From contig JAJZVC010000008.1 of assembly GCA_021845865.1 (NCBI GenBank), positions 1,137 through 65,136 of the forward strand: DNA of 64,000 nucleotides. The letters are read 5' to 3'. The translations under genes and the position numbers were made by a program. Shown here one piece after another: positions 10,770-43,561 of the stretch. This DNA comes from Pseudomonadota bacterium (GTDB lineage: Bacteria; Pseudomonadota; Gammaproteobacteria; Burkholderiales; UBA9220). Below the pieces are notes generated by a model. It had not been told where the DNA came from. It searched no databases and saw only the letters and a list, made by a program, of their open reading frames with translations. How positions within the stretch are numbered: the first letter of the stretch is position 1; each line of letters begins with the position of its first letter.

Positions 10770-12475
10770 ACCACCGATTGTATGTGGCTCACGGCATTCT
10801 GCAAGGGGACCACCGTCGCCTTGTCGTCGCGGCGCCCCTGATATTCCACGTTGCCTTCCTTCAGGCCGCGGTCGCCGATGACGAGACGGTGGGGGATGCC
10901 GATCAGTTCCATGTCGGCGAACATCACGCCCGGGCGCTCGTCCCGGTCGTCCAGCAGCACGTCGATACCGGCGGCGGCAAGCTCGGCGTAGAGCCTGTCC
11001 GCCGCTTCCCGCACCGCCTCGCTCTTCTTGTAGCCGATGGGGCACAGGGCCACCTCGAAGGGCGCCATGGCGCGGGGCCAGAGGATGCCGCGGGCGTCGT
11101 GATTCTGCTCGATGGCCGCCCCCAGGATGCGGGACACGCCGATGCCGTAGCAGCCCATGATCATCACCTGGGACTGGCCGTTCTCGTCCAGGTAGGCGGC
11201 GTTCATGGCTTCGGAATACTTGGTGCCGAGCTGGAAGATGTGGCCCACCTCGATGCCCCGGCACAGCTCCAGGGAGCCCTTGCCGTCGGGGCTGGGGTCG
11301 CCCGCCACGACGTTGCGGATATCGGCCACCAGGTCGGGCTCGGGCAGGTCGCGGCCCCAGTTGACGCCGGCGGCGTGGAACTTGGGCTTGTTGGCGCCGC
11401 AGACGAAATCGCTCATGGCCGCCACGGTGCGGTCGGCGATGACGCGGATGGCGCCGCGGTCGATGCCGACGGGGCCCAGGAAACCCGGCGGGCAATTGAA
11501 GGCGGCGCGGATTTCCTCGTCGGTGGCGAAGCGGAAATCGGCCAGGCCTTCCACCTTGGCGGCTTTCACCTCGTTGAGGCTGTGGTCGCCGCGAATCAGC
11601 AGCACGTTGAGTTTATCGCCGGCCATCACGGCGATCAGCTTGACGGTCTTGGTCAGCGGAATGCCGAGCAGCGCGGCCACGTCTTCGCAGGTGGTCTGCT
11701 TGGGCGTATCCACATCGCGCATCGCCTCGCTGGCGGGGGCCCGGGGCGTGGCCGGGGCGAGGCCCTCGGCCATCTCCACGTTGGCGGCGTAGTCGGAAGC
11801 GGGGCAAAAGGCGAGGGCGTCCTCGCCGGAATCGGCCAGGACGTGGAATTCATGGGAGCCGGTGCCGCCGATGGCGCCGGTGTCCGCCGCCACGGCGCGG
11901 AACTTGAGGCCGAGGCGGGTAAAGATGCGGCTGTAGGTGTCGTGCATCACAGCGTAGGTCTGCTCCAGGGATTCCCGGCTGGCATGGAAGGAGTAGGCGT
12001 CCTTCATCACGAACTCCCGGGCACGCATGACGCCGAAACGGGGGCGGATTTCGTCGCGGAATTTGGTCTGTATCTGGTAGAAGTTGATGGGCAGCTGACG
12101 GTAGGAGCGGATTTCCTTGCGCGCCACGTCGGTGATCACTTCCTCGTGGGTGGGGCCGAAGAGGAAGTCGCGGGCGTGGCGGTCCTTGATCTTCAGCATC
12201 TGGGGGCCGAACACGTCCCAGCGGCCGGTTTCCTGCCACAGTTCGGCGGGGATCACGGCGGGCATCAAGAGCTCCACCGCGCCGGCGCGGTTCATTTCCT
12301 CCCGCACCACCGCTTCCACCTTGCGCAGGACCCTTAGCCCCAGGGGCATCCAGGTGTAAAGGCCGGAGCCCAGGCGCTTGATGAGGCCAGCCCGCAGCAT
12401 CAGCTTGTGGCTGATCAGTTCTGCTTCGGAGGGGGCTTCCTTGAGGGTGGAAAGGAAAAATTGGGTTACGCGCAT
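10757..12475 (-). CDS. proS: proline--tRNA ligase
   Basis: The 572-aa product starts [32 protein letters not shown], as in bacterial ProRS. Class II motifs and an editing insertion are present. Confidence 0.95.
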
Positions 12476-12580
12476 GTTTTAATTCCGGAAAACCAGGTGA
12501 AGGCAAAGGTGGCATTCTACCGCTAAACCCGCCTGCCGTCAGGCTTACCCCGGTTATAATGCCGGATTGAGACACGAATC

Positions 12581-13387
12581 ATGTTGGTGAACCTGATCAT
12601 GGGCCTATTTTCCCGCCGCCGCATCCATAAAGCCGTGGACCGCAACGGCCAGGTGGATATCAGCGAGGAGAACGGCGTCCGCTCCCTCCATCTCGGCAGC
12701 CATACCGTCCAGAGCGCCATGCGCGTCAACCGCCCCTACGACCTGGAGGTGGAATACACCCGGCGCATGATGGCTTTCCTCCTGTTCCACCCCGAACCCA
12801 AAAATCTGCTCCTGGTGGGGCTGGGAGGCGGCTCCCTGTCCAAGTTCGTCCACCACCACTTTCCCGCCAGCCGTTCGGTGACGGTGGAAATCAACCCCCA
12901 AGTGGTGGCCGCCGCCCGTTCGTTCTTCCATCTCCCCCCCGACGATGAACGCTTCACGGTGGTTCTGGACGATGGCGCCCGTTACGTGGCCGAGCACCCG
13001 GCCTGCTGCGACGTGCTGCTGCTGGACGGCTACGATGAACAGGCCCAGGTGGAATCCCTCGCCAGCCAGGATTTCTACGACCGCTGTTTCCAGGCGCTGG
13101 CTCCGGACGGGGTGCTGTCGGTCAACCTGTGGGGCAGCGACCCCCGCTTCGAAATCTATTTCGAACGCATCGGCAAGAGTTTCGGCGGCCTGGCGCTGAT
13201 GCTGCCCTCCCTCTCCCGCGGCAATATCGTGGTCCTCGCCTTCAAGCGCTCTCCCGGCAGCCCCCGCTGGTCCGACCTGCGTGAACGGGCGAAGGAACTG
13301 GAACAGCGCTACGGCCTGGAATTCATCAAATTCGTCGAAGGCCTGCGGGACAACAACCCCCATACCGAGAAACGCCTTCTCATCTAG
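12581..13387 (+). CDS. spermidine synthase-like SAM-dependent methyltransferase-fold protein
   Basis: Contains LLLVGLGGGSL (glycine-rich SAM loop), VTVEINPQVV and DVLLLDGYD, as in the spermine/spermidine synthase family. Confidence 0.7.
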   Translation: MLVNLIMGLFSRRRIHKAVDRNGQVDISEENGVRSLHLGSHTVQSAMRVNRPYDLEVEYTRRMMAFLLFHPEPKNLLLVGLGGGSLSKFVHHHFPASRSVTVEINPQVVAAARSFFHLPPDDERFTVVLDDGARYVAEHPACCDVLLLDGYDEQAQVESLASQDFYDRCFQALAPDGVLSVNLWGSDPRFEIYFERIGKSFGGLALMLPSLSRGNIVVLAFKRSPGSPRWSDLRERAKELEQRYGLEFIKFVEGLRDNNPHTEKRLLI

Positions 13388-19777: not shown

Positions 19778-21064
19778 ATGCTGCCCGCAGGACTTTCCTT
19801 CGACCAGGCGCCGCCCATCGCGGTGCCGTTCCGCTTCTTTCTCACGGCGCCCCTCTTTCTCCTCGCCGCCGCGATCCTGCTCGTGGCTTACGGCCCGGAG
19901 ATGCTGCTGTCGCGCCATATGCCGGCCACCCTCGCCGCCACCCACCTCCTCACCCTGGGCTTCACCTCCATGGTCATGTGCGGCGCCATGATGCAAATGC
20001 TGCCGGTGGTAGCGGGAGCGCCGGTGCCGGCGCCGCGGCTGGTGGCCTGGACCGTGCATCTTTCCCTCGCCACCGGCGCGGCCGGCGTGGCGGCCTCATT
20101 CCTTTGGGGACGGCCGGTCCTGATGCACCTGGGCGGCGGCCTGGCGGCGCTGGGGTTCGGCGTCTTCCTCGCCGCGGCCGCCTGGAGCCTGGCCCATGTC
20201 CGCTCCCGCAGCCCCTCGGTGCCCGCCATGGGGTTTTCCATCGCCTCCCTGGCGGTCACCGCCGCTCTCGGCTTGACGCTCGGCATCGCCCGCCAGGGCG
20301 GGCTGGACATTCCCTACGTCCAGTTCTCCCTTCTCCACCCCATGTGGGGGCTCTACGGCTGGACCGCCCTGCTGGTCATGGGGGTGGCCTACCAAGTGGT
20401 GCCCATGTTCCAGCTCACGCCCAACTATCCCAAGGCCATCACGACTTGGCTGGCAGGCGGACTGTTCCTGCTGCTGATCCTGCGTTCCGCCGCCGAATTC
20501 ACGCTCCTGCCGCCGGCGGTTCCCGGCGTGGCCTTGGCCGCCGGCGCGGGAGTCTTCGCCATCGCTACCCTTCGCCTTCAGGGCCGGCGCAAGCGCAAAA
20601 TCAGCGATGCCACCCTGCTCTTCTGGCGCGTCGGCATGGGCCTCCTCCTGGCCGCCTGTCTCCTGTGGCTGGCTGCCGCCCTGCTGCCCGCCGAAGCGGC
20701 TGAGCGCGCCCGGCTTCTGTTGGGCATCGCGGCCCTGCCGGGATTCATCCTCGCCGTCATCAACGGCATGCTCTACAAGATCGTGCCCTTCCTCGCCTGG
20801 TTCCATCTGCAAAGCCGTTACGTGGGCAAAACCGCCATCCCCAACATGAAGCAGCTCCAGCCGGACCGACCGGCGCGGGGCCAGATGGCCCTCTATCTCG
20901 CCGCCCTGGCGCTGCTGGCCGGAGCCGTCTTCTGGCCGCCCCTCGCGCGGCTTTCCGGCCTGCTATGGCTGGCCAGCGCCCTGTGGCTGGAGAGAAACCT
21001 GCTCCGCGCCCTGATCCTCTACCGTCGGACGGTGGCCCTTGCCACAGCAAAAAAGTCGGATTAA
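19778..21064 (+). CDS. polytopic membrane protein, distantly NnrS-like
   Basis: The 428-aa product has about 12 hydrophobic segments. N-terminal PFRFFLTAPLFLL...THLLTLGF...MQMLPVVAG resembles the NnrS pattern (FRPFFL...H.HE..FG...PNWTG). The family call is tentative. Confidence 0.6.
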   Translation: MLPAGLSFDQAPPIAVPFRFFLTAPLFLLAAAILLVAYGPEMLLSRHMPATLAATHLLTLGFTSMVMCGAMMQMLPVVAGAPVPAPRLVAWTVHLSLATGAAGVAASFLWGRPVLMHLGGGLAALGFGVFLAAAAWSLAHVRSRSPSVPAMGFSIASLAVTAALGLTLGIARQGGLDIPYVQFSLLHPMWGLYGWTALLVMGVAYQVVPMFQLTPNYPKAITTWLAGGLFLLLILRSAAEFTLLPPAVPGVALAAGAGVFAIATLRLQGRRKRKISDATLLFWRVGMGLLLAACLLWLAAALLPAEAAERARLLLGIAALPGFILAVINGMLYKIVPFLAWFHLQSRYVGKTAIPNMKQLQPDRPARGQMALYLAALALLAGAVFWPPLARLSGLLWLASALWLERNLLRALILYRRTVALATAKKSD

Positions 21065-30060: not shown

Positions 30061-30486
30061 ATGAGCGAAACGTTCACCAAATCCATGGCGCGGAACATTT
30101 TCTACGGAGGAGCTATGTTCTTCTTCCTCCTGTTCCTCGCCCTGACCTTCGATACCCAGGGCGTTTTGCCCAAGCGGGATCACCGGGAGAACATCACCGA
30201 CGCGGTGGTGCGCGGCAAACACATCTGGGAGCGCAACGACTGCATCGGCTGCCATACCCTGCTGGGCGAGGGCGCCTACTTCGCTCCCGAGCTGGGCAAC
30301 GTCTACAAGCGCCGCGGCCCCGATTTCATCAAGGCCTGGATCAAGGGCCAGCCCACCGGCGTGCCGGGCCGCCGCCAGATGCCCCAGTTCCACCTGACCG
30401 ACCAGGAGCTGGACGACCTGGTGGCCTTCTTCAAGTGGACTTCGGAGATCAACACCTCCAACTGGCCGCCCAACATCGAAGGGTAA
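30061..30486 (+). CDS. norC: nitric oxide reductase cytochrome c subunit
   Basis: Starts MSETFTKSMARNIFYGG with a membrane anchor, and carries the heme-c motif CIGCH. GGGAGGG lies upstream. The track ORF begins earlier at 29956. Confidence 0.93.
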   Translation: MSETFTKSMARNIFYGGAMFFFLLFLALTFDTQGVLPKRDHRENITDAVVRGKHIWERNDCIGCHTLLGEGAYFAPELGNVYKRRGPDFIKAWIKGQPTGVPGRRQMPQFHLTDQELDDLVAFFKWTSEINTSNWPPNIEG

Positions 30487-30552
30487 GCGTGAGAAGTGAG
30501 GCGTGAGGGGTGAGGAACCCCGACCCCGCCGGTTCACCTTGAAATGCGCTAA

Positions 30553-31947
<1,395 letters not shown>

Positions 31948-31958
31948 ACCCCACTCAC

Positions 31959-31986
31959 GGGGGGCCCGCGGGCCCCCCATTTTTTT
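31959..31986 (+). terminator. strong intrinsic terminator between norB and norE
   Basis: GGGGGGCC-CGCG-GGCCCCCC is a perfect 8-bp GC stem, followed by ATTTTTTT. It ends 8 nt before the norE ATG. Confidence 0.75.
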
Positions 31987-31994
31987 CTCCAACC

Positions 31995-32576
31995 ATGTCC
32001 GACACTCAAACCCTGGCCCTCCCCCGCAACCCGCCGGGAGATTTGGCCATCTGGTTTTTCATCTTCGCCGAGCTATTGGCCTTCGGCATCTTCTTCCTCG
32101 CCTATGCCTTCGCCCGGGCGAAAAACGTGGAGCTGTTCAATCAGTCCCAGCTCCTCCTCAACCGGGAATCGGGCATGGTCAACACCCTGGTGCTCATCAC
32201 CAGCAGCTACTTCGTGGTCCGCGCCGTCGCCGCCATCCGCGAGGGGTTCTCTCAAGTCTGCGCCCGCTGGCTGCTGGGCGCCATCGGCCTGGGCGGCGTG
32301 TTCGTCGCCGTCAAGCTGGCGGAATTCCACGCCAAGTTCGCCGCCGGCATCTCGCTCCACACCAACACCTTCTACATGTTCTATTTGTCCCTCACCATCT
32401 TCCACTTCATGCACGTGCTGATGGGCATGGTGATCCTCGGCTTCGTCGCGGTTAAGGCCCGACGGGGCGGCTACAGCGCGGACAGCCACACCGGCGTGGA
32501 AACCGGCGCCTCCTACTGGCACATGGTGGACCTGGTGTGGCTGATCCTGTTTCCCCTGGTCTACGTCATCCGGTGA
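31995..32576 (+). CDS. norE: cytochrome c oxidase subunit III-like protein NorE
   Basis: A 193-aa, 5-TM protein with LAIWFFIFAELLAFGIFF and WHMVDLVWLILFPLVY, the Cox3 family pattern. Confidence 0.85.
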   Translation: MSDTQTLALPRNPPGDLAIWFFIFAELLAFGIFFLAYAFARAKNVELFNQSQLLLNRESGMVNTLVLITSSYFVVRAVAAIREGFSQVCARWLLGAIGLGGVFVAVKLAEFHAKFAAGISLHTNTFYMFYLSLTIFHFMHVLMGMVILGFVAVKARRGGYSADSHTGVETGASYWHMVDLVWLILFPLVYVIR

Positions 32577-32581
32577 ACGCC

Positions 32582-32839
32582 ATGCGCCCCTGCACCCGAA
32601 TCTGGCTCCTCCTCATCGCCCTCTCCGGCGTCACCTACGGCATCGGCGAAGCCGGCCTGGGCGGCAAGGCGGTGGTAGCCACGCTGCTGGCCATTTCCCT
32701 GGTCAAAAGCCAGCTGGTGGCAGGCTTCTTCATGGGCCTGCGCCGCACCTCGTTCATGTGGCGGGCCATCATGGGGGGCTATCTGGTGGTGGTGTGCGGG
32801 ATGATCGGGGTGGCGTATTGGTTGGGCGCGGTCCGTTAA
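32582..32839 (+). CDS. norF: small membrane protein, NorF-like / prokaryotic Cox4 family
   Basis: An 85-aa product with three hydrophobic segments, directly after norE. The track ORF starts at 32537 and overlaps norE. Confidence 0.6.
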   Translation: MRPCTRIWLLLIALSGVTYGIGEAGLGGKAVVATLLAISLVKSQLVAGFFMGLRRTSFMWRAIMGGYLVVVCGMIGVAYWLGAVR

Positions 32840-32920
32840 ACAGTGCGTAGTTTTACTTACCGCCGGGAGACAGCATTCTTTCCCCCTTGACGGGGGAGGG
32901 AGAAGAACATCAGCGCGGGA

Positions 32921-34744
32921 TTAGCGCGTCAGCTGGGCGTAGAGCGCCGGCAGTTCCCGGGGCAGTTCCGCCGGGTTGCGGATCACCACGTAGCCGCCGA
33001 CGCCGAACAGGTGGGGCAGGTAATCCCCCGCCCGCTCGTCGATGGTGACGCAGAAGGGATGCAGCCCGGCCTTGCGGGCTTCCAGCAGCGCCATGCGGGT
33101 GTCCTCCAGGCCGTAGCGGCCCTCGTAGTGATCCAGGTCGTTGGGCTTGCCGTCGGTCAAAATCAGCAGCAGCCTTCTCCCCGCCGGCTGCTTGGCGAGG
33201 ATAGTGGAGGCGTGGCGCACCGCCGCCCCCATGCGGGTGTAGTAGCCGGGCTTGGCCGCCGCGATGCGGCCCCGCACCTCGGCGCCGTAGCGCTCGCCGA
33301 ACTCCTTGATGGCGTGGAAACGCACCTGGTGGCGCTTGAGGGAGGAAAAGCCGTAGAGGCCGAAGCGGTCGCCGGTGGCGGAGAGGGCTTCGGAGAACAG
33401 GAACAGGCTGTCGCGGATGACGTCGATCACCCGCTGGTGGTCGCTGATGTGGGCGTCGGTGGAGAGGGACAGGTCCGCCAGCAGCAGGCAGGCCAGGTCC
33501 CGGTCCTGGGCCCGGTGGTCCCGGTACAGGCCCCGCTCGGCGGCCAGGACGCCGGAGGCCCGCTCGGCCAGGAGGCGCACGCAGGCATCCAGGTCCGGCT
33601 CGGTGCCGTCGAACTGGCCCCGCATCCACACCCGCGCCGGCGCCAGGGCCTGGAACTGGCTGCGCAGGCGCTTGGCGGTTTTTTTCAGCTCCTGGGGCAG
33701 GTCGCAGGGCGTGGCCTGGCGCGCCACCATGGGCTGCACCCGGCAATGGCCGGGCTGCATCGCCTGCTTCTTGTAGTGCCACTCGGGGAGAAGAATGCCC
33801 TCTCCCAGGGGCAGGTCGTCCACGGCGGCGGAGGGCAGGTCCAGGTCGAAGCGCACGCTGGAGGCGGTGGTCTGGCCGTCCTGGGCCACGGCCATCACGT
33901 CCAGGTCGTCGGCGGCCCGTTCCGCCCCCTCGCCGTCGTCCTCCTCGGTGGCCCGGTTGACCTTCACGTATTCGGCCCAGGACAACACGCTCTCGGCGCG
34001 GAAGAACAGCATGAAGGGGTTCTTGTTTTCCGGCATCTCCGCCCGCTCGGCGCGGCGGCGCTTGCCGTCGCCCTTGCGGCGTGAACCTCCGCCCTCGCCG
34101 CCGCCTTTTGCCTGGCCCGCCGCTTGACCCAGCGCCACCGGTGGCTGGGGATGGAGCCACAGGGGCACCGGCCAGGGGGGCCGGGTGGCGGAAGGCAGCT
34201 CGGCCACCGAGCCCGGCTCCCGCAGGGCGGCGCGAATGGCCTCTTCCCGAGCCATCTCGTCGAACGGCAGGGCGCGCGGCGACGGCCTGAGGCCGATCGC
34301 CGGCTCCACCAGCCGACGGTAGCAGGCCGCCATGCCGGGGAAGCGCTCGAACACCGCCAGGGCAGCCTCCTGGCTGGCGCGGAACCAGTCGGGCTCTTCC
34401 GTTTCCGCCGCCGCCAGGGCGATGAGCCACAGGTAGAGGTCCCGGTTCAGGCTCCGCTCGGGGAACAGGTCGATGGCCTCGGGCAGGGCCAGCGCCTGCT
34501 CGTCCCGCCACGCCAGCTCGGCCCGCTCGCCGCTGCCGGCGATGCGGGCGAGGAGGCCGCGCCGGGCGCCGTGGCCCAGGGCGGCGGCGGGCTTCACGTC
34601 CAGGCCGCCATCGCCGCCGAGGGCGCGGAACAGGATGCCGGCGGTGCGCCCCATTTCCGCCAGCCGCACCGCCGCCCTGGGGTGGCGGCGGTCGGCGGCG
34701 CGGGTGATGAGGCGGTGCCACAGGACGCCGGCGTGCTCTTCCAT
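32921..34744 (-). CDS. norD: NorD (VWA-domain nitric oxide reductase activation protein)
   Basis: The 607-aa product has a C-terminal VWA with MIDAS-like LLADLSLSTDA. The N-terminus MEEHAGVLWHRLITRAA...DLYLWLIALAA is as in NorD. Confidence 0.9.
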   Translation of the reverse strand: MEEHAGVLWHRLITRAADRRHPRAAVRLAEMGRTAGILFRALGGDGGLDVKPAAALGHGARRGLLARIAGSGERAELAWRDEQALALPEAIDLFPERSLNRDLYLWLIALAAAETEEPDWFRASQEAALAVFERFPGMAACYRRLVEPAIGLRPSPRALPFDEMAREEAIRAALREPGSVAELPSATRPPWPVPLWLHPQPPVALGQAAGQAKGGGEGGGSRRKGDGKRRRAERAEMPENKNPFMLFFRAESVLSWAEYVKVNRATEEDDGEGAERAADDLDVMAVAQDGQTTASSVRFDLDLPSAAVDDLPLGEGILLPEWHYKKQAMQPGHCRVQPMVARQATPCDLPQELKKTAKRLRSQFQALAPARVWMRGQFDGTEPDLDACVRLLAERASGVLAAERGLYRDHRAQDRDLACLLLADLSLSTDAHISDHQRVIDVIRDSLFLFSEALSATGDRFGLYGFSSLKRHQVRFHAIKEFGERYGAEVRGRIAAAKPGYYTRMGAAVRHASTILAKQPAGRRLLLILTDGKPNDLDHYEGRYGLEDTRMALLEARKAGLHPFCVTIDERAGDYLPHLFGVGGYVVIRNPAELPRELPALYAQLTR

Positions 34745-34748
34745 GGCC

Positions 34749-35714
34749 TCAGTTCTCCTTGCCGCGATAGCAGTGGCCGGGAATGTCCACCCGGTGGCCG
34801 AAATCCCGCGCCGACTTGTCCAGGGCGCATTCGTTGCTCACCCACTTCAACAGGGTGCCCTCGGAATTGGCGATCTGCACCTGGGAACAGGCCTCGGCGC
34901 AGCGGTTGCACTGGGTGCAGGTGAACATGTGGCGCTTGATGGCGCGGGGCTTGAGGCGCATGGGGCAGACGTTGTCGCAGGCGGCGTCGCAGCTGGCGCA
35001 AGCCTCGGCCCGGCGGCGGTCGAAGCCGATCACCAGGGCCTTGCGGTTGCCCATCCAGGCCAGGCTCTGGAACAGGCCGATGGCGCAGCCGAAGCGGCAG
35101 AACAGGTGGCGGGCGAAGAGGAATTCGACGAAGAAGGCCACGGTGGCGGCGGTGATGAATACCGCCTGGTTGCGGGTCAAAGTGCCGCGCCACAGGTTGC
35201 CGTAGATTTCCGCCGGGGGCAGCAGGTAGGTGAGCAGCACCACCGCCCATACGAAGGCGAAGGCCAGGCTCATGCCCACCACCAGGGGCCAGTAGGCGGG
35301 GTTGGCCTTCGTCTCGCTGCCGTCCGGGTTGCGCTCCGGCAAGCGGTGCCGGTCCCAGACGCTCTGCTTGGCCGTGGCGCGGCGCAGCAGGTTGTTGAGG
35401 GTTTCCACCACCGAGAAGTGGGGGCACAGCCAGCCGCAGTAAAGGCGGCCGTATTTCCACGACACCCACACCCCGCCGCCGACGATCAGGGCGATGGGCA
35501 GCATGCCCCGCAGCAGCAGGTTCAGGGTCACCTGGGCGACGCCGGCCTTGCCGGCGACGAAATCGTCCACCCCCAGGGTCCAATCCATGCCGAAGAAGAT
35601 CAGGTGCTTGAGGTTGAGGTCGATGCGGAACAGGTCGAACACCGGCGCCAGGGCGAAGAGAATGAAGAAAGCGGCCTGGGTCAGCAGGCGGTAGCGCTGG
35701 ATGGAGCTAGCCAT
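34749..35714 (-). CDS. membrane polyferredoxin of the NapH/CcoG(FixG/RdxA) type
   Basis: The N-terminus YRLLTQAAFFILFALAPVFDLFRIDL..IFFG is CcoG-like. It has CGWLCP and CRFGC motifs plus two cluster motifs, CASCDAACDNVCP and CTQCNRCAEAC. It lies 4 nt from the norD start and overlaps the upstream ORF by 8 nt. Confidence 0.8.
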   Translation of the reverse strand: MASSIQRYRLLTQAAFFILFALAPVFDLFRIDLNLKHLIFFGMDWTLGVDDFVAGKAGVAQVTLNLLLRGMLPIALIVGGGVWVSWKYGRLYCGWLCPHFSVVETLNNLLRRATAKQSVWDRHRLPERNPDGSETKANPAYWPLVVGMSLAFAFVWAVVLLTYLLPPAEIYGNLWRGTLTRNQAVFITAATVAFFVEFLFARHLFCRFGCAIGLFQSLAWMGNRKALVIGFDRRRAEACASCDAACDNVCPMRLKPRAIKRHMFTCTQCNRCAEACSQVQIANSEGTLLKWVSNECALDKSARDFGHRVDIPGHCYRGKEN

Positions 35715-36102
35715 GGCCGGCCCTGCCGATGAAGGGGTAGATATAGGGCTTGCCCGCCAGGGCCTTGGACAAGCCGACCATCCCCAGCAGCACCAGGGTG
35801 GAATGGCAGGTGGTGAAATACAGAATCACCACCACCCAGGTGCCGGGAGCGCGCCAGCCGCCGAGCAGGAGAATGCCGACGTTGGCCGCCAGCAGCAGGC
35901 CTCCCGCCCACAGGCTGGCGAAGAAAGTCTGGCGCAGATGGCTGCGGGCCAGGGGCGGAGCGGCATGCCGCTGGCGCAGGTATAGCCAGGCCAGGCCGAG
36001 GAAAGCCAGCCCCGGCAGAAGCAGGAGGTTGACGAGGTAAAGGACTTCCGCGGCCACCGCCAGGGACTGGCCGGGAGGCGTCTCATCGGCCGAAAGTGGC
36101 AT
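35707..36102 (-). CDS. hypothetical 4-TM membrane protein
   Basis: The 131-aa product has four hydrophobic segments. It overlaps the norQ stop by 20 nt and the polyferredoxin start by 8 nt. I do not recognise the family. Confidence 0.6.
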   Translation of the reverse strand: MPLSADETPPGQSLAVAAEVLYLVNLLLLPGLAFLGLAWLYLRQRHAAPPLARSHLRQTFFASLWAGGLLLAANVGILLLGGWRAPGTWVVVILYFTTCHSTLVLLGMVGLSKALAGKPYIYPFIGRAGHG

Positions 36103-36865
36103 GGACGACCTCCATCAGCGCCGCCACCGTTTCCGGGTCGTCGGACAGGGGTTCCACCACGGCGGCGCGGCAGGCCTCCACCGGGTCGAGGCCGCTGCGG
36201 ATGAGGGTGGCGGCGTAAACCAGGAGACGGGTGCTGGCGGCCTCCTCCAGGTCGTGCTCCTTCAGCGCCCGGAAGGACTGGGCCAAGTTCACCAGGCGCC
36301 GCGCCAGCAGGGGGTCGATGCCCGTTTCCCCGGCGAGGATGGATTCCTCCCGGTCCGAGGACGGGAAATCGAAGCTCGCGCTGACGAAGCGCTGGCGGGT
36401 ACTGGGCTTCATGCCCTTGAGGAAATTCTGGTAGCCCGGGTTGTAGCTCACCACCAGCATGAATTCCGGCGGCGCCTGGAGGACCTCCCCCGTCCGCTCG
36501 ATGGGCAGGATGCGCCGGTCGTCGGAGAGGGGGTGCAGCACCACGGTGGTGTCCTTGCGCGCCTCCACCACCTCGTCCAGGTAGCAGATGCCCCCTTCCC
36601 GCACCGCCCGGGTCAAAGGGCCGTCGCTCCAGTAGGTGACGCCGTCGCCGATCAGGTGCCGCCCCACCAGGTCGGCGGCGGTGAGGTCATCGTGGCAGGC
36701 CACGGTGTATAGGGGCCGCCCCAGGCGCGCCGCCATGTGGGCGACGAAGCGGGTCTTGCCGCAGCCGGTGGGCCCCTTGATCAGCAGGGGCAGGCCGTTC
36801 TTCCAGGCGTGCTCGAACAGGGCGACTTCGTTGCCGTGGGGCTGGTAGAAGGGCAGATTGGACAT
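36083..36865 (-). CDS. norQ: NorQ/CbbQ-type MoxR AAA+ ATPase
   Basis: MSNLPFYQPHGNEVALFEHAWKNGLPLLIKGPTGCGKT contains the Walker A motif, and ICYLDEV is the Walker B. ATG at 36865; the track ORF starts at 36895. Confidence 0.92.
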   Translation of the reverse strand: MSNLPFYQPHGNEVALFEHAWKNGLPLLIKGPTGCGKTRFVAHMAARLGRPLYTVACHDDLTAADLVGRHLIGDGVTYWSDGPLTRAVREGGICYLDEVVEARKDTTVVLHPLSDDRRILPIERTGEVLQAPPEFMLVVSYNPGYQNFLKGMKPSTRQRFVSASFDFPSSDREESILAGETGIDPLLARRLVNLAQSFRALKEHDLEEAASTRLLVYAATLIRSGLDPVEACRAAVVEPLSDDPETVAALMEVVHATFGR

Positions 36866-36922
36866 GAACGCGACTCCGTCTTCCGATGAGACCAAGAATA
36901 AGGCGGCCTACAGGGAAGGGCT

Positions 36923-36936
36923 TTGACTTCCGTCAA
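36923..36936. promoter_or_regulatory. DNR/NnrR-like box TTGACTTCCGTCAA upstream of norQ
   Basis: A perfect TTGAC-N4-GTCAA palindrome. On the minus strand TATTCT (36895-36900) is at the class-II -10 position, 64 bp upstream of the norQ ATG. Confidence 0.65.
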
Positions 36937-37053
36937 GGCTTCGGGATTTTGCCCTCTCCGCGCCCCACTCCGGCGGCGGCGATTTGACCTGGATTAAGGC
37001 GCCGTTGCGCGGCGGCGGCTAACATGGCCGTATCGTTTCCCGTGAGGTGCGCC

Positions 37054-37665
37054 ATGCAGTTGCCCGAATTCTTCGACGCCGTCCCGCCCCTGGTGCTGCG
37101 GGACCCCCTCGCCGCCTTTCTCGGCGCGGCGGAGGACGGCCTGATCGAGTACCGCTACGCCGACGCCGTCAAACTGGCCGGCCACTCCTGCCCCACGGTG
37201 GCCGGGGCCTGGCTCATGACCCGCTGCGCCCTCGCCGCCCTCTACAGCGATGCCGTGCCGGAGCGCGGCGAAATAAAAGTAGAATTCCGCGACCCCCAGG
37301 ACAGCGGCGTCACAGGCGTCATCGCCAACGTGGCCGGCCTGCTCACCGGCGCCGCCGGCGACGGCGGCTTCAAGGGTCTGGGCGGCCGCTTCAACCGCCG
37401 CGGATTGATGGCCTTCGGCGTGCCCATGGAAGGGGAAATCCGCTTCACCCGCGTGGACACCGCCGCGGCCGTGGAAACGGCCTACCGTCCGCAGCTCGTT
37501 CCGCCCCAACCTGAAACGGGAATGCTGCTGCAGAAAATCCAGGCCGGCAGTGCCAGCGCCGAAGAGCGGCGGACCTTCGGCCGCCTGTGGCAGGAGCGGG
37601 TCAAGCACCTGCTTCTCGGCCAGGCCGGCACGCCGGAGTGGGTGACGGTGAGCCGCAAATCATGA
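37054..37665 (+). CDS. FmdE-like domain protein (tentative)
   Basis: KLAGHSCPTVAGAWLM resembles the GHxCPG core of the FmdE family. GAGG lies 7 nt before ATG 37054. A degenerate box TTGACCTGGATTAA (36984-36997) with TAACAT at 37020-37025 sits upstream. Confidence 0.5.
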   Translation: MQLPEFFDAVPPLVLRDPLAAFLGAAEDGLIEYRYADAVKLAGHSCPTVAGAWLMTRCALAALYSDAVPERGEIKVEFRDPQDSGVTGVIANVAGLLTGAAGDGGFKGLGGRFNRRGLMAFGVPMEGEIRFTRVDTAAAVETAYRPQLVPPQPETGMLLQKIQAGSASAEERRTFGRLWQERVKHLLLGQAGTPEWVTVSRKS

Positions 37666-38213
37666 GCGGCGAGGGCATCCGCCTCGGCCTGACGGAAGAA
37701 AGCGCCGCCGAGCACTGCCGCGACATCCGGCGGCGCGCCCCCGGCAGCGCCCACGCCCTGGCGGCCCTCACCGCCTTGCACGATTTCGTGGCGGAAGCCG
37801 CCGTGTCCGCGGACCGCTTCTCCCCCGCGCACCGCGCCGTCCTCGCCGTCATCCACCGCCACGCCGAGGAAACCCGCGCCGCCCTGCTGGCGGAAAGCGC
37901 CGAGGCGCTCGCCGCCGCGCTCCGGGGCCAGGACCGCCCGGCCCTGGCAAGGCTGCACCGGACCCTGTCCCGCAACGGTTTCTGGCAAGCCGCAACGGCA
38001 GCGGGAGAGGGCTTGGCAGCCGCCGAACTGGCCGCCGCCACGGACTGGGCGGAAGCATGGCTGAAGGAAGCGAAACGGCGGGGGGAAGCCGCCAGCGGCT
38101 ACCCCGACGCCCTGGACTTCGCCGGGGCGGGAATCCCGCCGGAGGAATACGCCGCCCTGCAGGATGCGGCCCACTGCCTGAGGGGGATTCTGGCAACTTC
38201 GGAAATGCTTTGA
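37662..38213 (+). CDS. hypothetical Ala-rich helical protein
   Basis: The ATG overlaps the upstream stop (ATGA). The 183-aa product has no recognisable motif. Confidence 0.5.
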   Translation: MSGEGIRLGLTEESAAEHCRDIRRRAPGSAHALAALTALHDFVAEAAVSADRFSPAHRAVLAVIHRHAEETRAALLAESAEALAAALRGQDRPALARLHRTLSRNGFWQAATAAGEGLAAAELAAATDWAEAWLKEAKRRGEAASGYPDALDFAGAGIPPEEYAALQDAAHCLRGILATSEML

Positions 38214-40674: not shown

Positions 40675-42045
40675 TCACTGCAGCATGAAGGTCTCGTATT
40701 CCAGCCGTTCCAGGCGGCGGTCGAGGAGCAGCATGCCGATCACCACCGTGGCGAGGAGGGAGAGGGCGAAACCGTAGCCGTAGAAAGTGGCCCCCAGCTT
40801 CAGGGTGGCAACGGTCAGGATGGCGTTGGCGGCGAGAAAGAACAGCACCAGGGCCAGGACGTTGAGGCGCTTGTCCAGGTAGTAGAAGACGTTGAGCAGC
40901 CCCAGCAGCACCACCTGCAGGGCCGCCGCCACCACGTCCACGTACAGCAGGGGCAGGTACAGCTCGGAAATCCCCAGCCAGCGCAGCAGGGATGGCCCCA
41001 GGACGAAGGTCAGCAGCACGGCGATGGCCTGGATTTTGACGATCTCCCCCAGGCCCTGGCGGATGGTGTGCACCATCTCATCGCGCATCTCCTCGATGTA
41101 TTCCAGGGTTCCCCCCTCCCGCACCGAGTCGTAGAACTTCTGGTAGTACTCGACGAAGTCGGTCTCCATGCGCACCAGGAACACCGCCATGCCAGGAATC
41201 ACCGACAGGTAGGCGAGGAAGATGGGGAAGTCGTAGATCAGGGAGGCCCGCAGGGGGCCGATGACGTTCTGCCCCGTGTCTGGATGAAACCAGAAAATGA
41301 TCTTGTCGCTCCACACCGCCAGGTTATAGGCGAAGCCGGAAACCATCAGGCTGGGATACATCACCCCTTTCTTCAGGAAATCGAAGGCCACGAAGCGGGA
41401 CGAGGGATAGTCCCGGTAAATCAGGGACAGCATGCCGGTGAGAAGGACGATATGCCCGATGATGAATCCCGCCAGCAGCCCTTCCAGGCCGAAGGGCCGC
41501 AGCACCAGGGCCGCCAGGACGCTGATGGCGTAGCCCGCGCCGTACATGACGACGATGGTCTTGTAGTATTTCATTCCCGACAGGGCCAGGGTGGTCACCC
41601 AGATGCAGCACATGGCGACGAAGCCGCCCAGCAGCAGCAGCTTGTAGGCGGCGCCAACGCCGCCGAAGAAGAGAAACAGCGCGGCCACCCCCAACCCTCC
41701 CGAGGCAGCCATGACCAGCAGCAACAGGCCGTTGAAGTTGGGCATGACGATTTCCTCGTTGCCCTCGTACAGCCGGTCGGCGATGAAGCGGGTGAAGGCG
41801 AGCTGGATCACCCCCGTCAGCACCAGGGAACCCACCATGATGTAGGTGACGGAAACCTGGAACTGGGTGACGAGGAAATCCGGCACCACCACCGACAGGC
41901 TCATGAAGCCGATGATCAAGACGCCGACGATGGACAGCACCCAGGAGCCGGAGCTGATCACCCCGGCATAGAGGTAGGCCTGCAGCAGGCCGCTGTAGGT
42001 GTCGGATTTGAGGAGTTTCCTTAGTTCAAAACCAATCCCCGCCAT
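40675..42045 (-). CDS. pelG: Pel polysaccharide membrane protein PelG
   Basis: Starts MAGIGFELRKLLKSDTYSGLLQAYLYAGVISSGSWVLSIVG and is polytopic. The track ORF extends to 42162. Confidence 0.88.
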   Translation of the reverse strand: MAGIGFELRKLLKSDTYSGLLQAYLYAGVISSGSWVLSIVGVLIIGFMSLSVVVPDFLVTQFQVSVTYIMVGSLVLTGVIQLAFTRFIADRLYEGNEEIVMPNFNGLLLLVMAASGGLGVAALFLFFGGVGAAYKLLLLGGFVAMCCIWVTTLALSGMKYYKTIVVMYGAGYAISVLAALVLRPFGLEGLLAGFIIGHIVLLTGMLSLIYRDYPSSRFVAFDFLKKGVMYPSLMVSGFAYNLAVWSDKIIFWFHPDTGQNVIGPLRASLIYDFPIFLAYLSVIPGMAVFLVRMETDFVEYYQKFYDSVREGGTLEYIEEMRDEMVHTIRQGLGEIVKIQAIAVLLTFVLGPSLLRWLGISELYLPLLYVDVVAAALQVVLLGLLNVFYYLDKRLNVLALVLFFLAANAILTVATLKLGATFYGYGFALSLLATVVIGMLLLDRRLERLEYETFMLQ

Positions 42046-42046
42046 C

Positions 42047-43561
42047 TCATTCCTTTTCCAGGCAGGCGCGGTAAATGCCGCGGTAGCTGTCGAACACCAG
42101 CTCCTCCGAATAGTAGCGCTCCACCCGCTCCATCCCGGCCCGCTGGGCGGCATGCCAGGCATTTTCGTCGGTCAGCAGCTCCAGGCAGGCATCGGCCAGG
42201 GCCCCGGGAGAGGCGATGCCGACGACGCGCCCCGACGGCCCCAGGGCCTCGTCCTCCCCCGGCAGGCCATGCACCAGCTGGCGGCAGGAACCCACGTCGG
42301 TGGTCACCACCGGCACCCCGGCGCCGTAGGCCTCCAGCACCACCAGGGGCAAGGCCTCGCTGATGGAGCTCAGCACCAGCAGGCCCGCCTGGGGCAGGAT
42401 ATCCTCCACCTTGCGGAAGCCGAGGAACCTCACCGACTCGGCCAGGCCCAGGCTCTGCACCAGTTCGCGGCACTCCCGGGCGTATTCCGGGTCTTCCTCC
42501 TCCGGCCCCACGATCCATCCCTGGGCCTCCGGCAGGCGGTTCACCACGGTGCGCATGGCGCGGATGAAGGTCTTCACGTCCTTGATCGGCACCACCCGGC
42601 CGATGAGGCACATCACCGGCGGCACCGCCTCGGCCCGCTGCCGGCGCAAGGGCACCAGCTTGCCTAGATTCACGCCGTTGGGGATGCAGCGGGTCCGCTC
42701 CGCCGGCGCCCCGTCCTGGAGCTGGCGCTGGCGGTTGGCCTCGTAGAGGGCGACGATGTGGTCGCAGGCGTCGTAGCACATCTTGCCCAGGACCTCGAAG
42801 AAGCGGATCCACAGCTGCTTCAGGTAGCCGATTTCCGTGGCGCTGCGCTGGAACAGGTTGCGGTTGTCCCGCACCCAGTCGCTCTGGAACAGGTCGATCT
42901 TGCGTTCCTTGGTGTAGATGCCGTGCTCCGACAGGACCAGGGGCTTGCCGGTGTACTGCTTGAGGAGAGCGCCGAGGAAGCCGGCATAGCCGGTGGACAC
43001 CGTGTGGTAGGCGCGGACCGGGAAAGGATGCTGCCCCGCCGCCGCCAGCAGCCACACCGGCGTGTGCATGATGCGCACGGTCCAGAAATAGTCGATGTAG
43101 GACGGGTCGGCGCAGTACTTGCCGTAGCGGTTGCGGATGAAATCCCAGGAGCGCTTGCCGTAAAGAAAGGTGCCGTGGGGCAGCTTGCCGCCCCCGTGGA
43201 GTTCCCGCGCCAGGTCGGCGAAAAGGCTGCTCCAAGGCGTGGACAGGGGAGTGCGGAAGGCCTCGTGGAGCTTATCCACCCGCTCGAACACTTCCGCGTC
43301 GCCGTCGCAGGCCTGGACCGGCGGGGCCTCGTGGGCAGAGAAAATGTAGTGGTGCTCCAGGTGGACCACGTTGTCCGGCAGGGGATATTTTTTCTCGCCG
43401 TAATCCTCCGGCCGGCTGCCGATGAAAATGAGGGCGAAGGTGTACTCGGGGAAGCCCCTGATCAGCTGGTGCACCCAGCTCGACACGCCGCCGGAGACGT
43501 AGGGATAGGTCCCCTCCAGCAGCAGCCCGATGTCGGCGCGGTCGGCCTTGCTGAAATTCAT
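42047..43561 (-). CDS. pelF: Pel glycosyltransferase PelF (GT4)
   Basis: Contains IGLLLEGTYPYVSGGVSSWVHQLI, and a C-terminal GT4 EX7E-type region (SSISEALPLVVLEAYGAGVPVVTTDVG). Confidence 0.9.
   Translation of the reverse strand: MNFSKADRADIGLLLEGTYPYVSGGVSSWVHQLIRGFPEYTFALIFIGSRPEDYGEKKYPLPDNVVHLEHHYIFSAHEAPPVQACDGDAEVFERVDKLHEAFRTPLSTPWSSLFADLARELHGGGKLPHGTFLYGKRSWDFIRNRYGKYCADPSYIDYFWTVRIMHTPVWLLAAAGQHPFPVRAYHTVSTGYAGFLGALLKQYTGKPLVLSEHGIYTKERKIDLFQSDWVRDNRNLFQRSATEIGYLKQLWIRFFEVLGKMCYDACDHIVALYEANRQRQLQDGAPAERTRCIPNGVNLGKLVPLRRQRAEAVPPVMCLIGRVVPIKDVKTFIRAMRTVVNRLPEAQGWIVGPEEEDPEYARECRELVQSLGLAESVRFLGFRKVEDILPQAGLLVLSSISEALPLVVLEAYGAGVPVVTTDVGSCRQLVHGLPGEDEALGPSGRVVGIASPGALADACLELLTDENAWHAAQRAGMERVERYYSEELVFDSYRGIYRACLEKE

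Follow-up and report, generated by a model that had tools for sequence, protein, structure and literature searches.

How does the catalytic non-haem iron (FeB) enter nitric oxide (NO) reductase, the enzyme that makes nitrous oxide (N2O), a greenhouse gas, in denitrifiers? This is an active question, and the locus described here gives it a particular form: what do two membrane-protein genes do that lie between norQ and norD? The locus belongs to a stretch of 64,000 nucleotides (nt) from a Pseudomonadota bacterium (assembly GCA_021845865.1, contig JAJZVC010000008.1, positions 1,137 to 65,136), and this whole stretch is called the window below. The larger gene encodes a predicted cytoplasm-facing, membrane-anchored di-cluster ferredoxin of the NapH/CcoG/NosR kind, which to judge from gene order and sequence comparison is co-inherited and co-translated with NorQ and NorD. 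This version of the NorQ/NorD machinery is typical of many Beta- and Gammaproteobacteria. Our tentative reading, to which we give slightly less than an even chance, is that both inserted genes encode auxiliary membrane components of the NorQ/NorD machinery that inserts FeB into the cytochrome c-dependent NO reductase (cNOR), and so support its maturation.

Gene arrangement and junctions

The open reading frame (ORF) list and direct reading of the junctions gave the following order on the minus strand, from norQ to norD:

36083..36895, minus strand: norQ, a MoxR-type AAA+ ATPase (Pfam AAA_5 and CbbQ_C)
35707..36102, minus strand: gene of the 131-residue small membrane protein ('TM4'; ORF and junction reading)
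34749..35714, minus strand: gene of the 321-residue membrane polyferredoxin ('PolyFd'; Pfam Fer4_5; ORF and junction reading)
32921..34744, minus strand: norD (Pfam VWA; full-length match to the solved NorD 9qhd_G, E 4e-99)

The small gene starts (ATG at 36102) before norQ has ended (TGA at 36085-36083), resulting in a 20-nt overlap. It overlaps the polyferredoxin gene in turn by 8 nt (ATGGCTAG), with its TAG at 35709-35707 and the polyferredoxin ATG at 35714. Between the polyferredoxin TGA (34751-34749) and the norD ATG (34744) there is only a 4-nt spacer, GGCC. The coordinates, the two overlaps and the gap reported in a preliminary description of this DNA all agreed with these data. In the scan of 32700-37200 for promoters and terminators, no promoter-like site was found, and terminator-like matches inside coding sequence stayed at background level.

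The genes flanking the insert are a true norQ and a true norD, orthologous over their full length to the components of the solved NorQD complex. NorQ matched the solved NorQ of Paracoccus denitrificans (9qh4) with E 9e-110 and that of J. thermophila with E 5e-108; the corresponding values for NorD were 5e-90 and 4e-99, respectively. The ORF list begins norQ at a TTG, and alignment to the solved NorQ points to the ATG at 36865, ten codons further on, as the probable real start. Cys45 of the NorQ P-loop (GPTGCGKT) and Cys67 (TVACHDD), encoded at 36693-36763 on the minus strand, correspond to Cys46 and Cys68 of P. denitrificans, and the stretch GPTGCGKT...TVACHDD is identical between the window NorQ and 9qh4.

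The polyferredoxin

Fer4_5 (PF12801), the membrane-proximal Cys-motif domain common to NapH, NosR and CcoG, was the sole Pfam domain above threshold in the polyferredoxin (residues 74-113, 38 bits against a cut-off of 22). The protein carries four cysteine motifs:

35421..35438, minus strand: C93-G-W-L-C97-P, at the predicted cytoplasmic end of transmembrane helix 2, followed by the invariant His99
35085..35099, minus strand: C206-R-F-G-C210, just past transmembrane helix 4, preceded by the invariant R202-H203 and without the proline of the NapH CX3CP
34962..35000, minus strand: first cluster motif, C239-x2-C242-x3-C246-x3-C250-P251 (alignments and sequence)
34887..34919, minus strand: second cluster motif, C266-x2-C269-x2-C272-x3-C276 (alignments and sequence)

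All 12 cysteines were invariant in the 28 and 9 homologues of two alignments spanning the family, and the CGWLCP/CRFGC and two 4Fe-4S motifs were found in the 321-residue protein as previously described. Hydropathy predicted four transmembrane helices at residues 10-28, 66-84, 144-162 and 183-201. The loops with CGWLCP, CRFGC and both cluster motifs contain 9 and 19 Lys+Arg residues, whereas the two other loops contain 3 and 2. The positive-inside rule therefore predicts a cytoplasmic position for the two termini, the two CX3C(P) motifs and the two cluster motifs alike, which would place the redox centres on the side where NorQ and NorD act. The C-terminus lies about 45 residues past the last cluster cysteine.

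Scores against the family models were low. The NapH models gave 51.2 bits against a cut-off of 213 (TIGR02163) and 49.2 against 234 (NF007013), and other members of the polyferredoxin family scored 34-56 bits against the NapH model. The NapH alignment nevertheless spans residues 8-278 of the protein and positions 4-248 of 255 of the model, and identity to the Sphaerotilus NapH is 28%. The CcoG model (TIGR02745) gave 44.7 bits against 316.7, and its match ran from position 66 to 287 of 435, so the C-terminal domain of CcoG is absent from the polyferredoxin. The initial classification as a CcoG/NapH-type polyferredoxin lacking this domain was thereby borne out. The NosR model (NF046105) gave 15.4 bits against 1000, over 30 residues only, and no FMN_bind match was obtained.

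A sequence search returned 3309 polyferredoxin homologues. In a profile search covering 1.84 billion representatives (a 50% representative library), full-length representatives of the family scored 328-566 bits and the next full-length relatives at most 155 bits. Most of the full-length out-group relatives scanned scored higher against CcoG than against NapH, all of them below the CcoG cut-off. Judged by these scores, the polyferredoxin is a tight family of its own within the NapH/CcoG/NosR superfamily. No fusion with a VWA or AAA+ domain occurred among the best 150 matches in the 1.84-billion-representative library, where the longest member had 460 residues. Searching the PDB sequences with the family profile found no solved relative, the best match being a generic ferredoxin subunit at E 0.07.

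Comparison with known systems

CcoG (FixG/RdxA) shares with the polyferredoxin a membrane anchor, a CxWxCP-type motif after a helix, two four-cysteine cluster motifs and a cytoplasm-facing redox domain (predicted for the polyferredoxin). CcoG is moreover an accessory factor whose gene neighbours those of a C-family haem-copper enzyme, and cNOR is the closest relative of that family. In contrast to CcoG, the polyferredoxin has neither the fifth helix nor the C-terminal periplasmic domain (model positions 288-435 unmatched), its gene sits with norQ and norD and not with ccoHIS, and the metal of the target site is iron instead of copper. NapH belongs to the same length class and has four helices, cytoplasmic termini and two C-terminal cluster motifs, in keeping with the full-length alignment. 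The polyferredoxin differs from it in the second motif, which is CRFGC-A and not CX3CP (the first, CGWLCP, is kept), in the lack of a napG partner and of nap genes in its operon, and by a long branch in the tree. Sphaerotilus carries a separate annotated napGH pair besides the polyferredoxin. NosR/NirI are denitrification helpers of the same superfamily, encoded in the operon of the target enzyme, with a cytoplasmic C-terminal polyferredoxin and CX3CP motifs; they have a periplasmic domain binding flavin mononucleotide (FMN), which is missing here, and six helices compared with four.

The preliminary description knew of no such component in Nor maturation, and none emerged from the literature: we found no mention of either inserted protein in the texts on NorQD and Nor maturation that were searched. 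No curated Pfam or NCBIfam family names either protein, and database labels read only '4Fe-4S binding protein' and 'hypothetical protein'. In the Nitricoxidivorans paper, norQ (OHM77_13040) and norD (OHM77_13030) are two locus-tag steps apart (adjacent tags differ by 5), a spacing that passes without comment there. Genes annotated as NorD and as a CbbQ/NirQ/NorQ-family protein in a methanotroph CRISPR-interference study were set aside, as that annotation does not show membership of a nor cluster.

The small membrane protein

The 131-residue protein has 645 homologues, labelled 'hypothetical' or 'uncharacterized Tic20 family protein' (the latter label from JGI). The window copy had no Pfam or NCBIfam match, and none to DUF4870 (PF09685, also labelled MamF_MmsF) even at E 10, and nine of 29 homologues matched DUF4870 weakly (14-21.5 bits against a gathering threshold of 25 bits). 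The protein resembles Tic20/DUF4870 in size and predicted helix arrangement, but its family keeps a separate set of invariant residues and always the same place behind norQ, and all family matches stay below the gathering score. The best fold match in the PDB was 8z9y_B, a chain of the Arabidopsis TIC complex (probability 0.93, template-modelling score 0.62), with a weak E value of 0.46.

The AlphaFold model, with a predicted local distance difference test score (pLDDT) of 83, has helices at residues 12-27, 32-44, 50-79 and 86-115. The first two are short and separated by an invariant Pro-Gly, so the protein crosses the membrane three or four times. The earlier '4-TM' label thus holds for the number of helices, and less surely for the number of crossings. 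A marine clade of the protein is 30-36% identical, and its gene again overlaps the norQ end. The residues common to both clades are Y22, N25, P30, H55, H100 and P123, with the two histidines encoded as follows:

35938..35940, minus strand: codon of His55, at the predicted cytoplasmic end of helix 3, invariant in both clades (alignments)
35803..35805, minus strand: codon of His100, in the middle of the last helix, invariant in both clades (alignments)

The presence of two invariant histidines in such a small protein suggests a ligand pair for a metal or a haem.

Distribution and conserved junctions

At least 593 species-level genome stretches encode a relative of the polyferredoxin (scan with one genome per species), and a metagenome scan gave at least 427 further stretches. 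For the neighbourhood survey that the preliminary description had proposed, 166 loci were retrieved and their nor genes located by tblastn. Since similarity to two query clades decided which loci entered the sample, the linkage fractions describe these samples and not all genomes. Of 127 loci with sufficient flank, 98 had NorD directly downstream of the polyferredoxin. On the upstream side (136 loci), NorQ was present in 94, the small gene lay directly upstream in 75 and NorB in 20. Some nor gene was nearby in 81 of the 92 loci having at least 3 kb on both sides (88%). Among the 108 loci with adequate flanks the architectures were:

norQ, small gene, polyferredoxin, norD: 50 loci
norQ, polyferredoxin, norD: 14 loci
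norB, polyferredoxin, norD: 17 loci
the same strings with an extra insert before norD: 10 loci
other arrangements: 17 loci

The insert recurs in nor clusters of more than 12 betaproteobacterial and gammaproteobacterial genera. Among the carriers are Thiobacillus denitrificans, Sideroxydans lithotrophicus ES-1, Sulfuricella, Noviherbaspirillum, Undibacterium, Thermithiobacillus, Competibacteraceae, Denitromonas and Sphaerotilus, together with numerous marine Gammaproteobacteria. A norD relative was found on 255 plasmids, mostly alphaproteobacterial, of which only 3 carry the polyferredoxin, all from Beta- and Gammaproteobacteria.

With gene starts chosen by rule, an overlap of norQ with the small gene was present at 55 of 76 loci, 22 of which had exactly −20 nt. 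The small gene and the polyferredoxin overlapped at 39 of 83 loci, 14 of them with −8 nt. The gap between polyferredoxin and norD was 20 nt or less in 73 of 100 loci, and the median spacer measured 4 nt. The closeness of the junctions is conserved and not accidental.

Some clusters are rearranged. In the marine clade the order is norC-norB-polyferredoxin-norD-norE, with norQ and an overlapping 124-residue homologue of the small gene on the opposite strand, and Denitromonas has norE-norF-norQ-small gene-polyferredoxin-norD without norCB nearby. Through these rearrangements norQ stays paired with the small gene, and the polyferredoxin stays paired with norD. The location between norQ and norD, on which the preliminary description rested, is the commonest arrangement, but the association is with the nor cluster, most tightly with norD, and not with the norQ-norD interval as such. 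An insert specific to this interval was considered and rejected, since the marine, Amphritea and Thiothrix arrangements contradict it.

In a neighbour-joining tree, most stand-alone, nos-linked or relocated copies of the polyferredoxin formed one clade nested in the nor-linked gammaproteobacterial sequences, and the few other stand-alone copies formed a second small group beside the marine clade. The idea that the stand-alone copies represent an ancestral general function was rejected because their clade is derived and nested in this way; the ancestral context was thus norQ-norD.

Some individual loci showed further features. In a metagenome-assembled genome (MAG) of Thiotrichaceae (L050, 1319-8945), a 1287-residue NosZ with three fused cytochrome c domains comes before two dihaem cytochromes c and, after these, a 322-residue membrane protein (no Pfam match), whose gene is overlapped by that of a polyferredoxin orthologue with 57% identity. 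Another Thiotrichaceae MAG (L064, 7024-8960) has tandem polyferredoxin copies, 54% and 57% identical to the window protein and overlapping by 4 nt, with no nor gene nearby. Five Sulfuricella-type loci (L006, L008, L013, L018 and L162) have 1-6.7 kb of genes between the polyferredoxin and norD, read by eye as encoding a sigma-54 activator, an Rrf2-like regulator, a PAS-GGDEF-EAL protein, a hemerythrin-like protein, DUF2249 and a relative of the 428-residue membrane protein without Pfam match that is described under the other features of the window.

Co-divergence

Co-divergence was analyzed over the 67 loci that carry NorC, NorB, NorQ, the polyferredoxin and NorD all together. The distance matrices of the polyferredoxin and NorD correlated with r 0.92 (no p-value is attached), the highest value of all cluster pairs, in line with the co-evolution with norQD anticipated beforehand. 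The partial correlation of this pair given NorB was 0.64, equal to that of NorQ and NorD, a physically interacting pair. This result suggests co-inherited, co-functioning genes and is not a proof of contact.

Proposed role and alternative explanations

The 2026 cryo-electron microscopy study of P. denitrificans describes NorQD as acting from the cytoplasmic side to insert FeB, and reports that a Cys46-Cys68 disulphide in NorQ abolishes ATPase activity unless dithiothreitol is present (PMC13036017). CcoG is reported to have a cytoplasmic redox domain and is a cupric reductase serving cbb3 oxidase (PMC8267372). The NorQD models thus suggest room for a reductant, as the source and state of the iron are undescribed in them and the NorQ disulphide needs one.

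In the maturation role that we favour, the polyferredoxin, with its four-helix anchor and its two [4Fe-4S] and two CX3C(P) motifs at the cytoplasmic membrane face, would pass electrons, whose source is presumably the quinol pool or a donor in the cytoplasm, to the site on NorB where NorD/NorQ dock. These electrons may supply the reducing power for the insertion step by holding the arriving iron in the ferrous state, as CcoG holds copper in the cuprous state for cbb3 oxidase, and/or may keep the chaperone NorQ (or the haem pocket) reduced and active. The membrane metal reductase that the preliminary description suggested by analogy with CcoG would be a putative, more specific form of this role. 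The small Tic20/DUF4870-like protein, coupled to norQ translation and having two invariant histidines, would be the membrane partner of the polyferredoxin. The cluster binding, the direction of the electrons, their substrate and a contact with NorQ, NorD or NorB are what we infer in this scheme.

A more specific version, which we regard as a long shot, makes the polyferredoxin the physiological reductant of a redox switch in NorQ. Electrons from the quinol pool would reopen the P-loop disulphide Cys45-Cys67 via the Fe-S clusters and the CX3C(P) thiols, and the small protein would hold a ferrous ion for NorD. If this is true, a reduced respiratory chain would be the condition for ATP-driven insertion of iron into NO reductase, and the cell would have a membrane ferredoxin:disulphide reductase dedicated to an AAA+ metal-insertion machine.

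Several observations weigh against the maturation role. The Agrobacterium norEFCBQD cluster has norQ and norD adjacent without the insert, and Sulfuricurvum norCBDQEF also lacks the insert genes. Published descriptions of the cNOR cluster list six genes, and the six-gene Paracoccus cluster gives active enzyme in E. coli. This absence from canonical norCBQDEF systems indicates an auxiliary add-on of one cluster lineage, not a universal or essential component. In an anaerobic cell the iron of the cytoplasm should already be in the ferrous form, and the need for a ferric reductase is therefore not obvious. Co-inheritance alone would be expected to produce co-divergence between neighbours.

Gene context raises further difficulties. 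Amphritea has norCB-polyferredoxin-norEF-norQ-norD, with the polyferredoxin right after norB. In Thiothrix the annotated coding sequence of the polyferredoxin overlaps nnrS by 4 nt, with norCB near and no norQD nearby (a query with the Thiothrix NnrS found nothing in the 64-kb window). The polyferredoxin ends a nosZ-cytochrome c cluster in L050, adjoins a cytochrome d1-domain gene in Sedimenticola, and stands alone in about eleven copies, with no nor gene within 3-8 kb. The nnrS-linked, nosZ-linked and stand-alone copies may keep a broader redox-support role in play. Structure prediction lent no support either: the AlphaFold model of the polyferredoxin (28-sequence alignment) had a mean pLDDT of 62, with the Fe-S domain below 50, and Foldseek of this model against the PDB gave nothing below E 3, so no structural conclusion can be drawn.

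The orthologues outside norQ-norD, placed after norB (Amphritea, marine clade), overlapping nnrS (Thiothrix) or ending the nosZ cluster (L050), would fit a NapH/NosR-like quinol-linked electron module that keeps the NO/N2O enzymes or NnrS reduced in vivo instead of loading FeB, its position at norD reflecting shared regulation. The full-length alignment and 28% identity to NapH point the same way, as do the genes between polyferredoxin and norD in the Sulfuricella-type loci, which by eye look NO-response related. To our knowledge, all other N-oxide reductases have a helper of this type: NapH serves Nap, NirI serves NirS and NosR/NosH serve NosZ. However, periplasmic cytochrome c is the electron source of cNOR, whereas the Fe-S domain of the polyferredoxin is predicted to lie in the cytoplasm, and neither a NapG-like periplasmic partner nor an FMN domain is encoded. 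The tightest and most frequent neighbour is norD (median 4 nt), which is also the closest in co-divergence, and the stand-alone and nos-linked copies belong mostly to one derived clade within the nor-linked ones. We consider such an electron module unlikely, if a serious competitor.

The pair might also be a sensor or regulator, its Fe-S clusters reporting NO or redox state and modulating nor expression or stability. NosR and NirI, of the same superfamily, have been described genetically as affecting expression of their target reductases. NCBIfam names NosR a 'transcriptional regulator', and Crp/Fnr regulators (annotated or found by Pfam) and apparent Rrf2-type and GGDEF/EAL genes (by eye) lie beside or inside the clusters. 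Yet the polyferredoxin, which ends soon after its second cluster motif, has no DNA-binding or signalling output domain, its match to the NosR model is negligible (15 bits vs 1000), and translational coupling to the chaperone pair suggests stoichiometric co-production and not regulation; a regulatory function is very doubtful. That the genes are passengers of unrelated function, e.g. encoding a general membrane redox protein, could be read from the minority of copies that stand alone in unrelated neighbourhoods (PPK2, LysR regulator, cytochrome b561). With nor genes at 88% of the adequately flanked loci, conserved junctions, pairs persisting through rearrangements and a restriction to Beta- and Gammaproteobacteria among norD-bearing plasmids, we hold this to be highly improbable.

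Current models of FeB insertion, including the 2026 study, are built on the six-gene cluster and leave open the iron source, its redox state and the NorQ reductant. Many environmentally important denitrifiers and sulfur and iron oxidisers encode two extra conserved membrane proteins wired into norQ-norD, which are a testable candidate for the missing redox or iron-supply step. Such a role would complete the picture of a separate NapH/NosR/CcoG-type helper for every N-oxide reductase. Proteins of this kind are already known; what is new is a member dedicated to nor, together with its small partner and the coupling of both to a MoxR/VWA metal-insertion machine.

Other features of the window

The remaining nor genes lie on the plus strand, with norC and norB as structural genes of cNOR:

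about 30061-30486 (ORF listed from 29956), plus strand: norC (ORF list)
30574-31947, plus strand: norB (ORF list)
31995-32576, plus strand: norE (Pfam COX3)
32537-32839 as listed, with the ATG at 32582 as likely start, plus strand: norF (Pfam COX4_pro)

The norQ-norD string is convergent with this norC-norB-norE-norF set (30061-32839). Compared with the canonical norCBQDEF cluster of P. denitrificans, NorC, NorB, NorE, NorF, NorQ and NorD are all present and orthologous here; the differences are the two extra genes between norQ and norD and the convergent accessory string. Identity to the corresponding genes in related loci was 58-87% for NorC and 72-99% for NorB, and the called genes matching norC and norB in locus L001 carry Cytochrom_C and COX1 domains. 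The listed start of norF is a GTG that overlaps norE by 40 nt; the in-frame ATG at 32582, 5 nt past the norE stop, is likelier. The closest genome was a Sulfuricellaceae MAG (L002), with 92-99% amino-acid identity for most genes across the cluster. At 10803-13075, between norD and the complete norE-norF pair, it has one more copy of norF and an incomplete one of norE, where the window has a single pair.

The window nor genes belong to a denitrification island that includes nirS, a radical-SAM gene that is probably nirJ, two genes with a cytochrome d1 domain, probably nirN and nirF, and a Crp/Fnr regulator. Just upstream of this regulator, a multi-helix membrane ORF of 428 residues (19778-21064, plus strand) had no Pfam match. 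Its homologues occur at 35-50% identity in 20 related nor loci and adjoin hemerythrin and DUF2249 genes in L001 and L083, the loci whose neighbours were called. It looks like another uncharacterised conserved member of these denitrification islands.

Two ORFs of 213 and 208 residues (37024-37665 and 37587-38213, plus strand) are divergent from norQ and had no Pfam or NCBIfam match. They are kept beside norQ in L002 (91% and 82% identity, respectively) and were unseen beside norQ in the other loci; the 213-residue ORF carries a GHSCPTVAGA motif. The segment 38001-40000, which separates the nor accessory genes from a pel-type exopolysaccharide cluster (PelG at 40675-42162), has a G+C fraction of 0.57 compared with 0.65-0.70 on both sides, and holds two small membrane ORFs (166 and 107 residues) without Pfam match.

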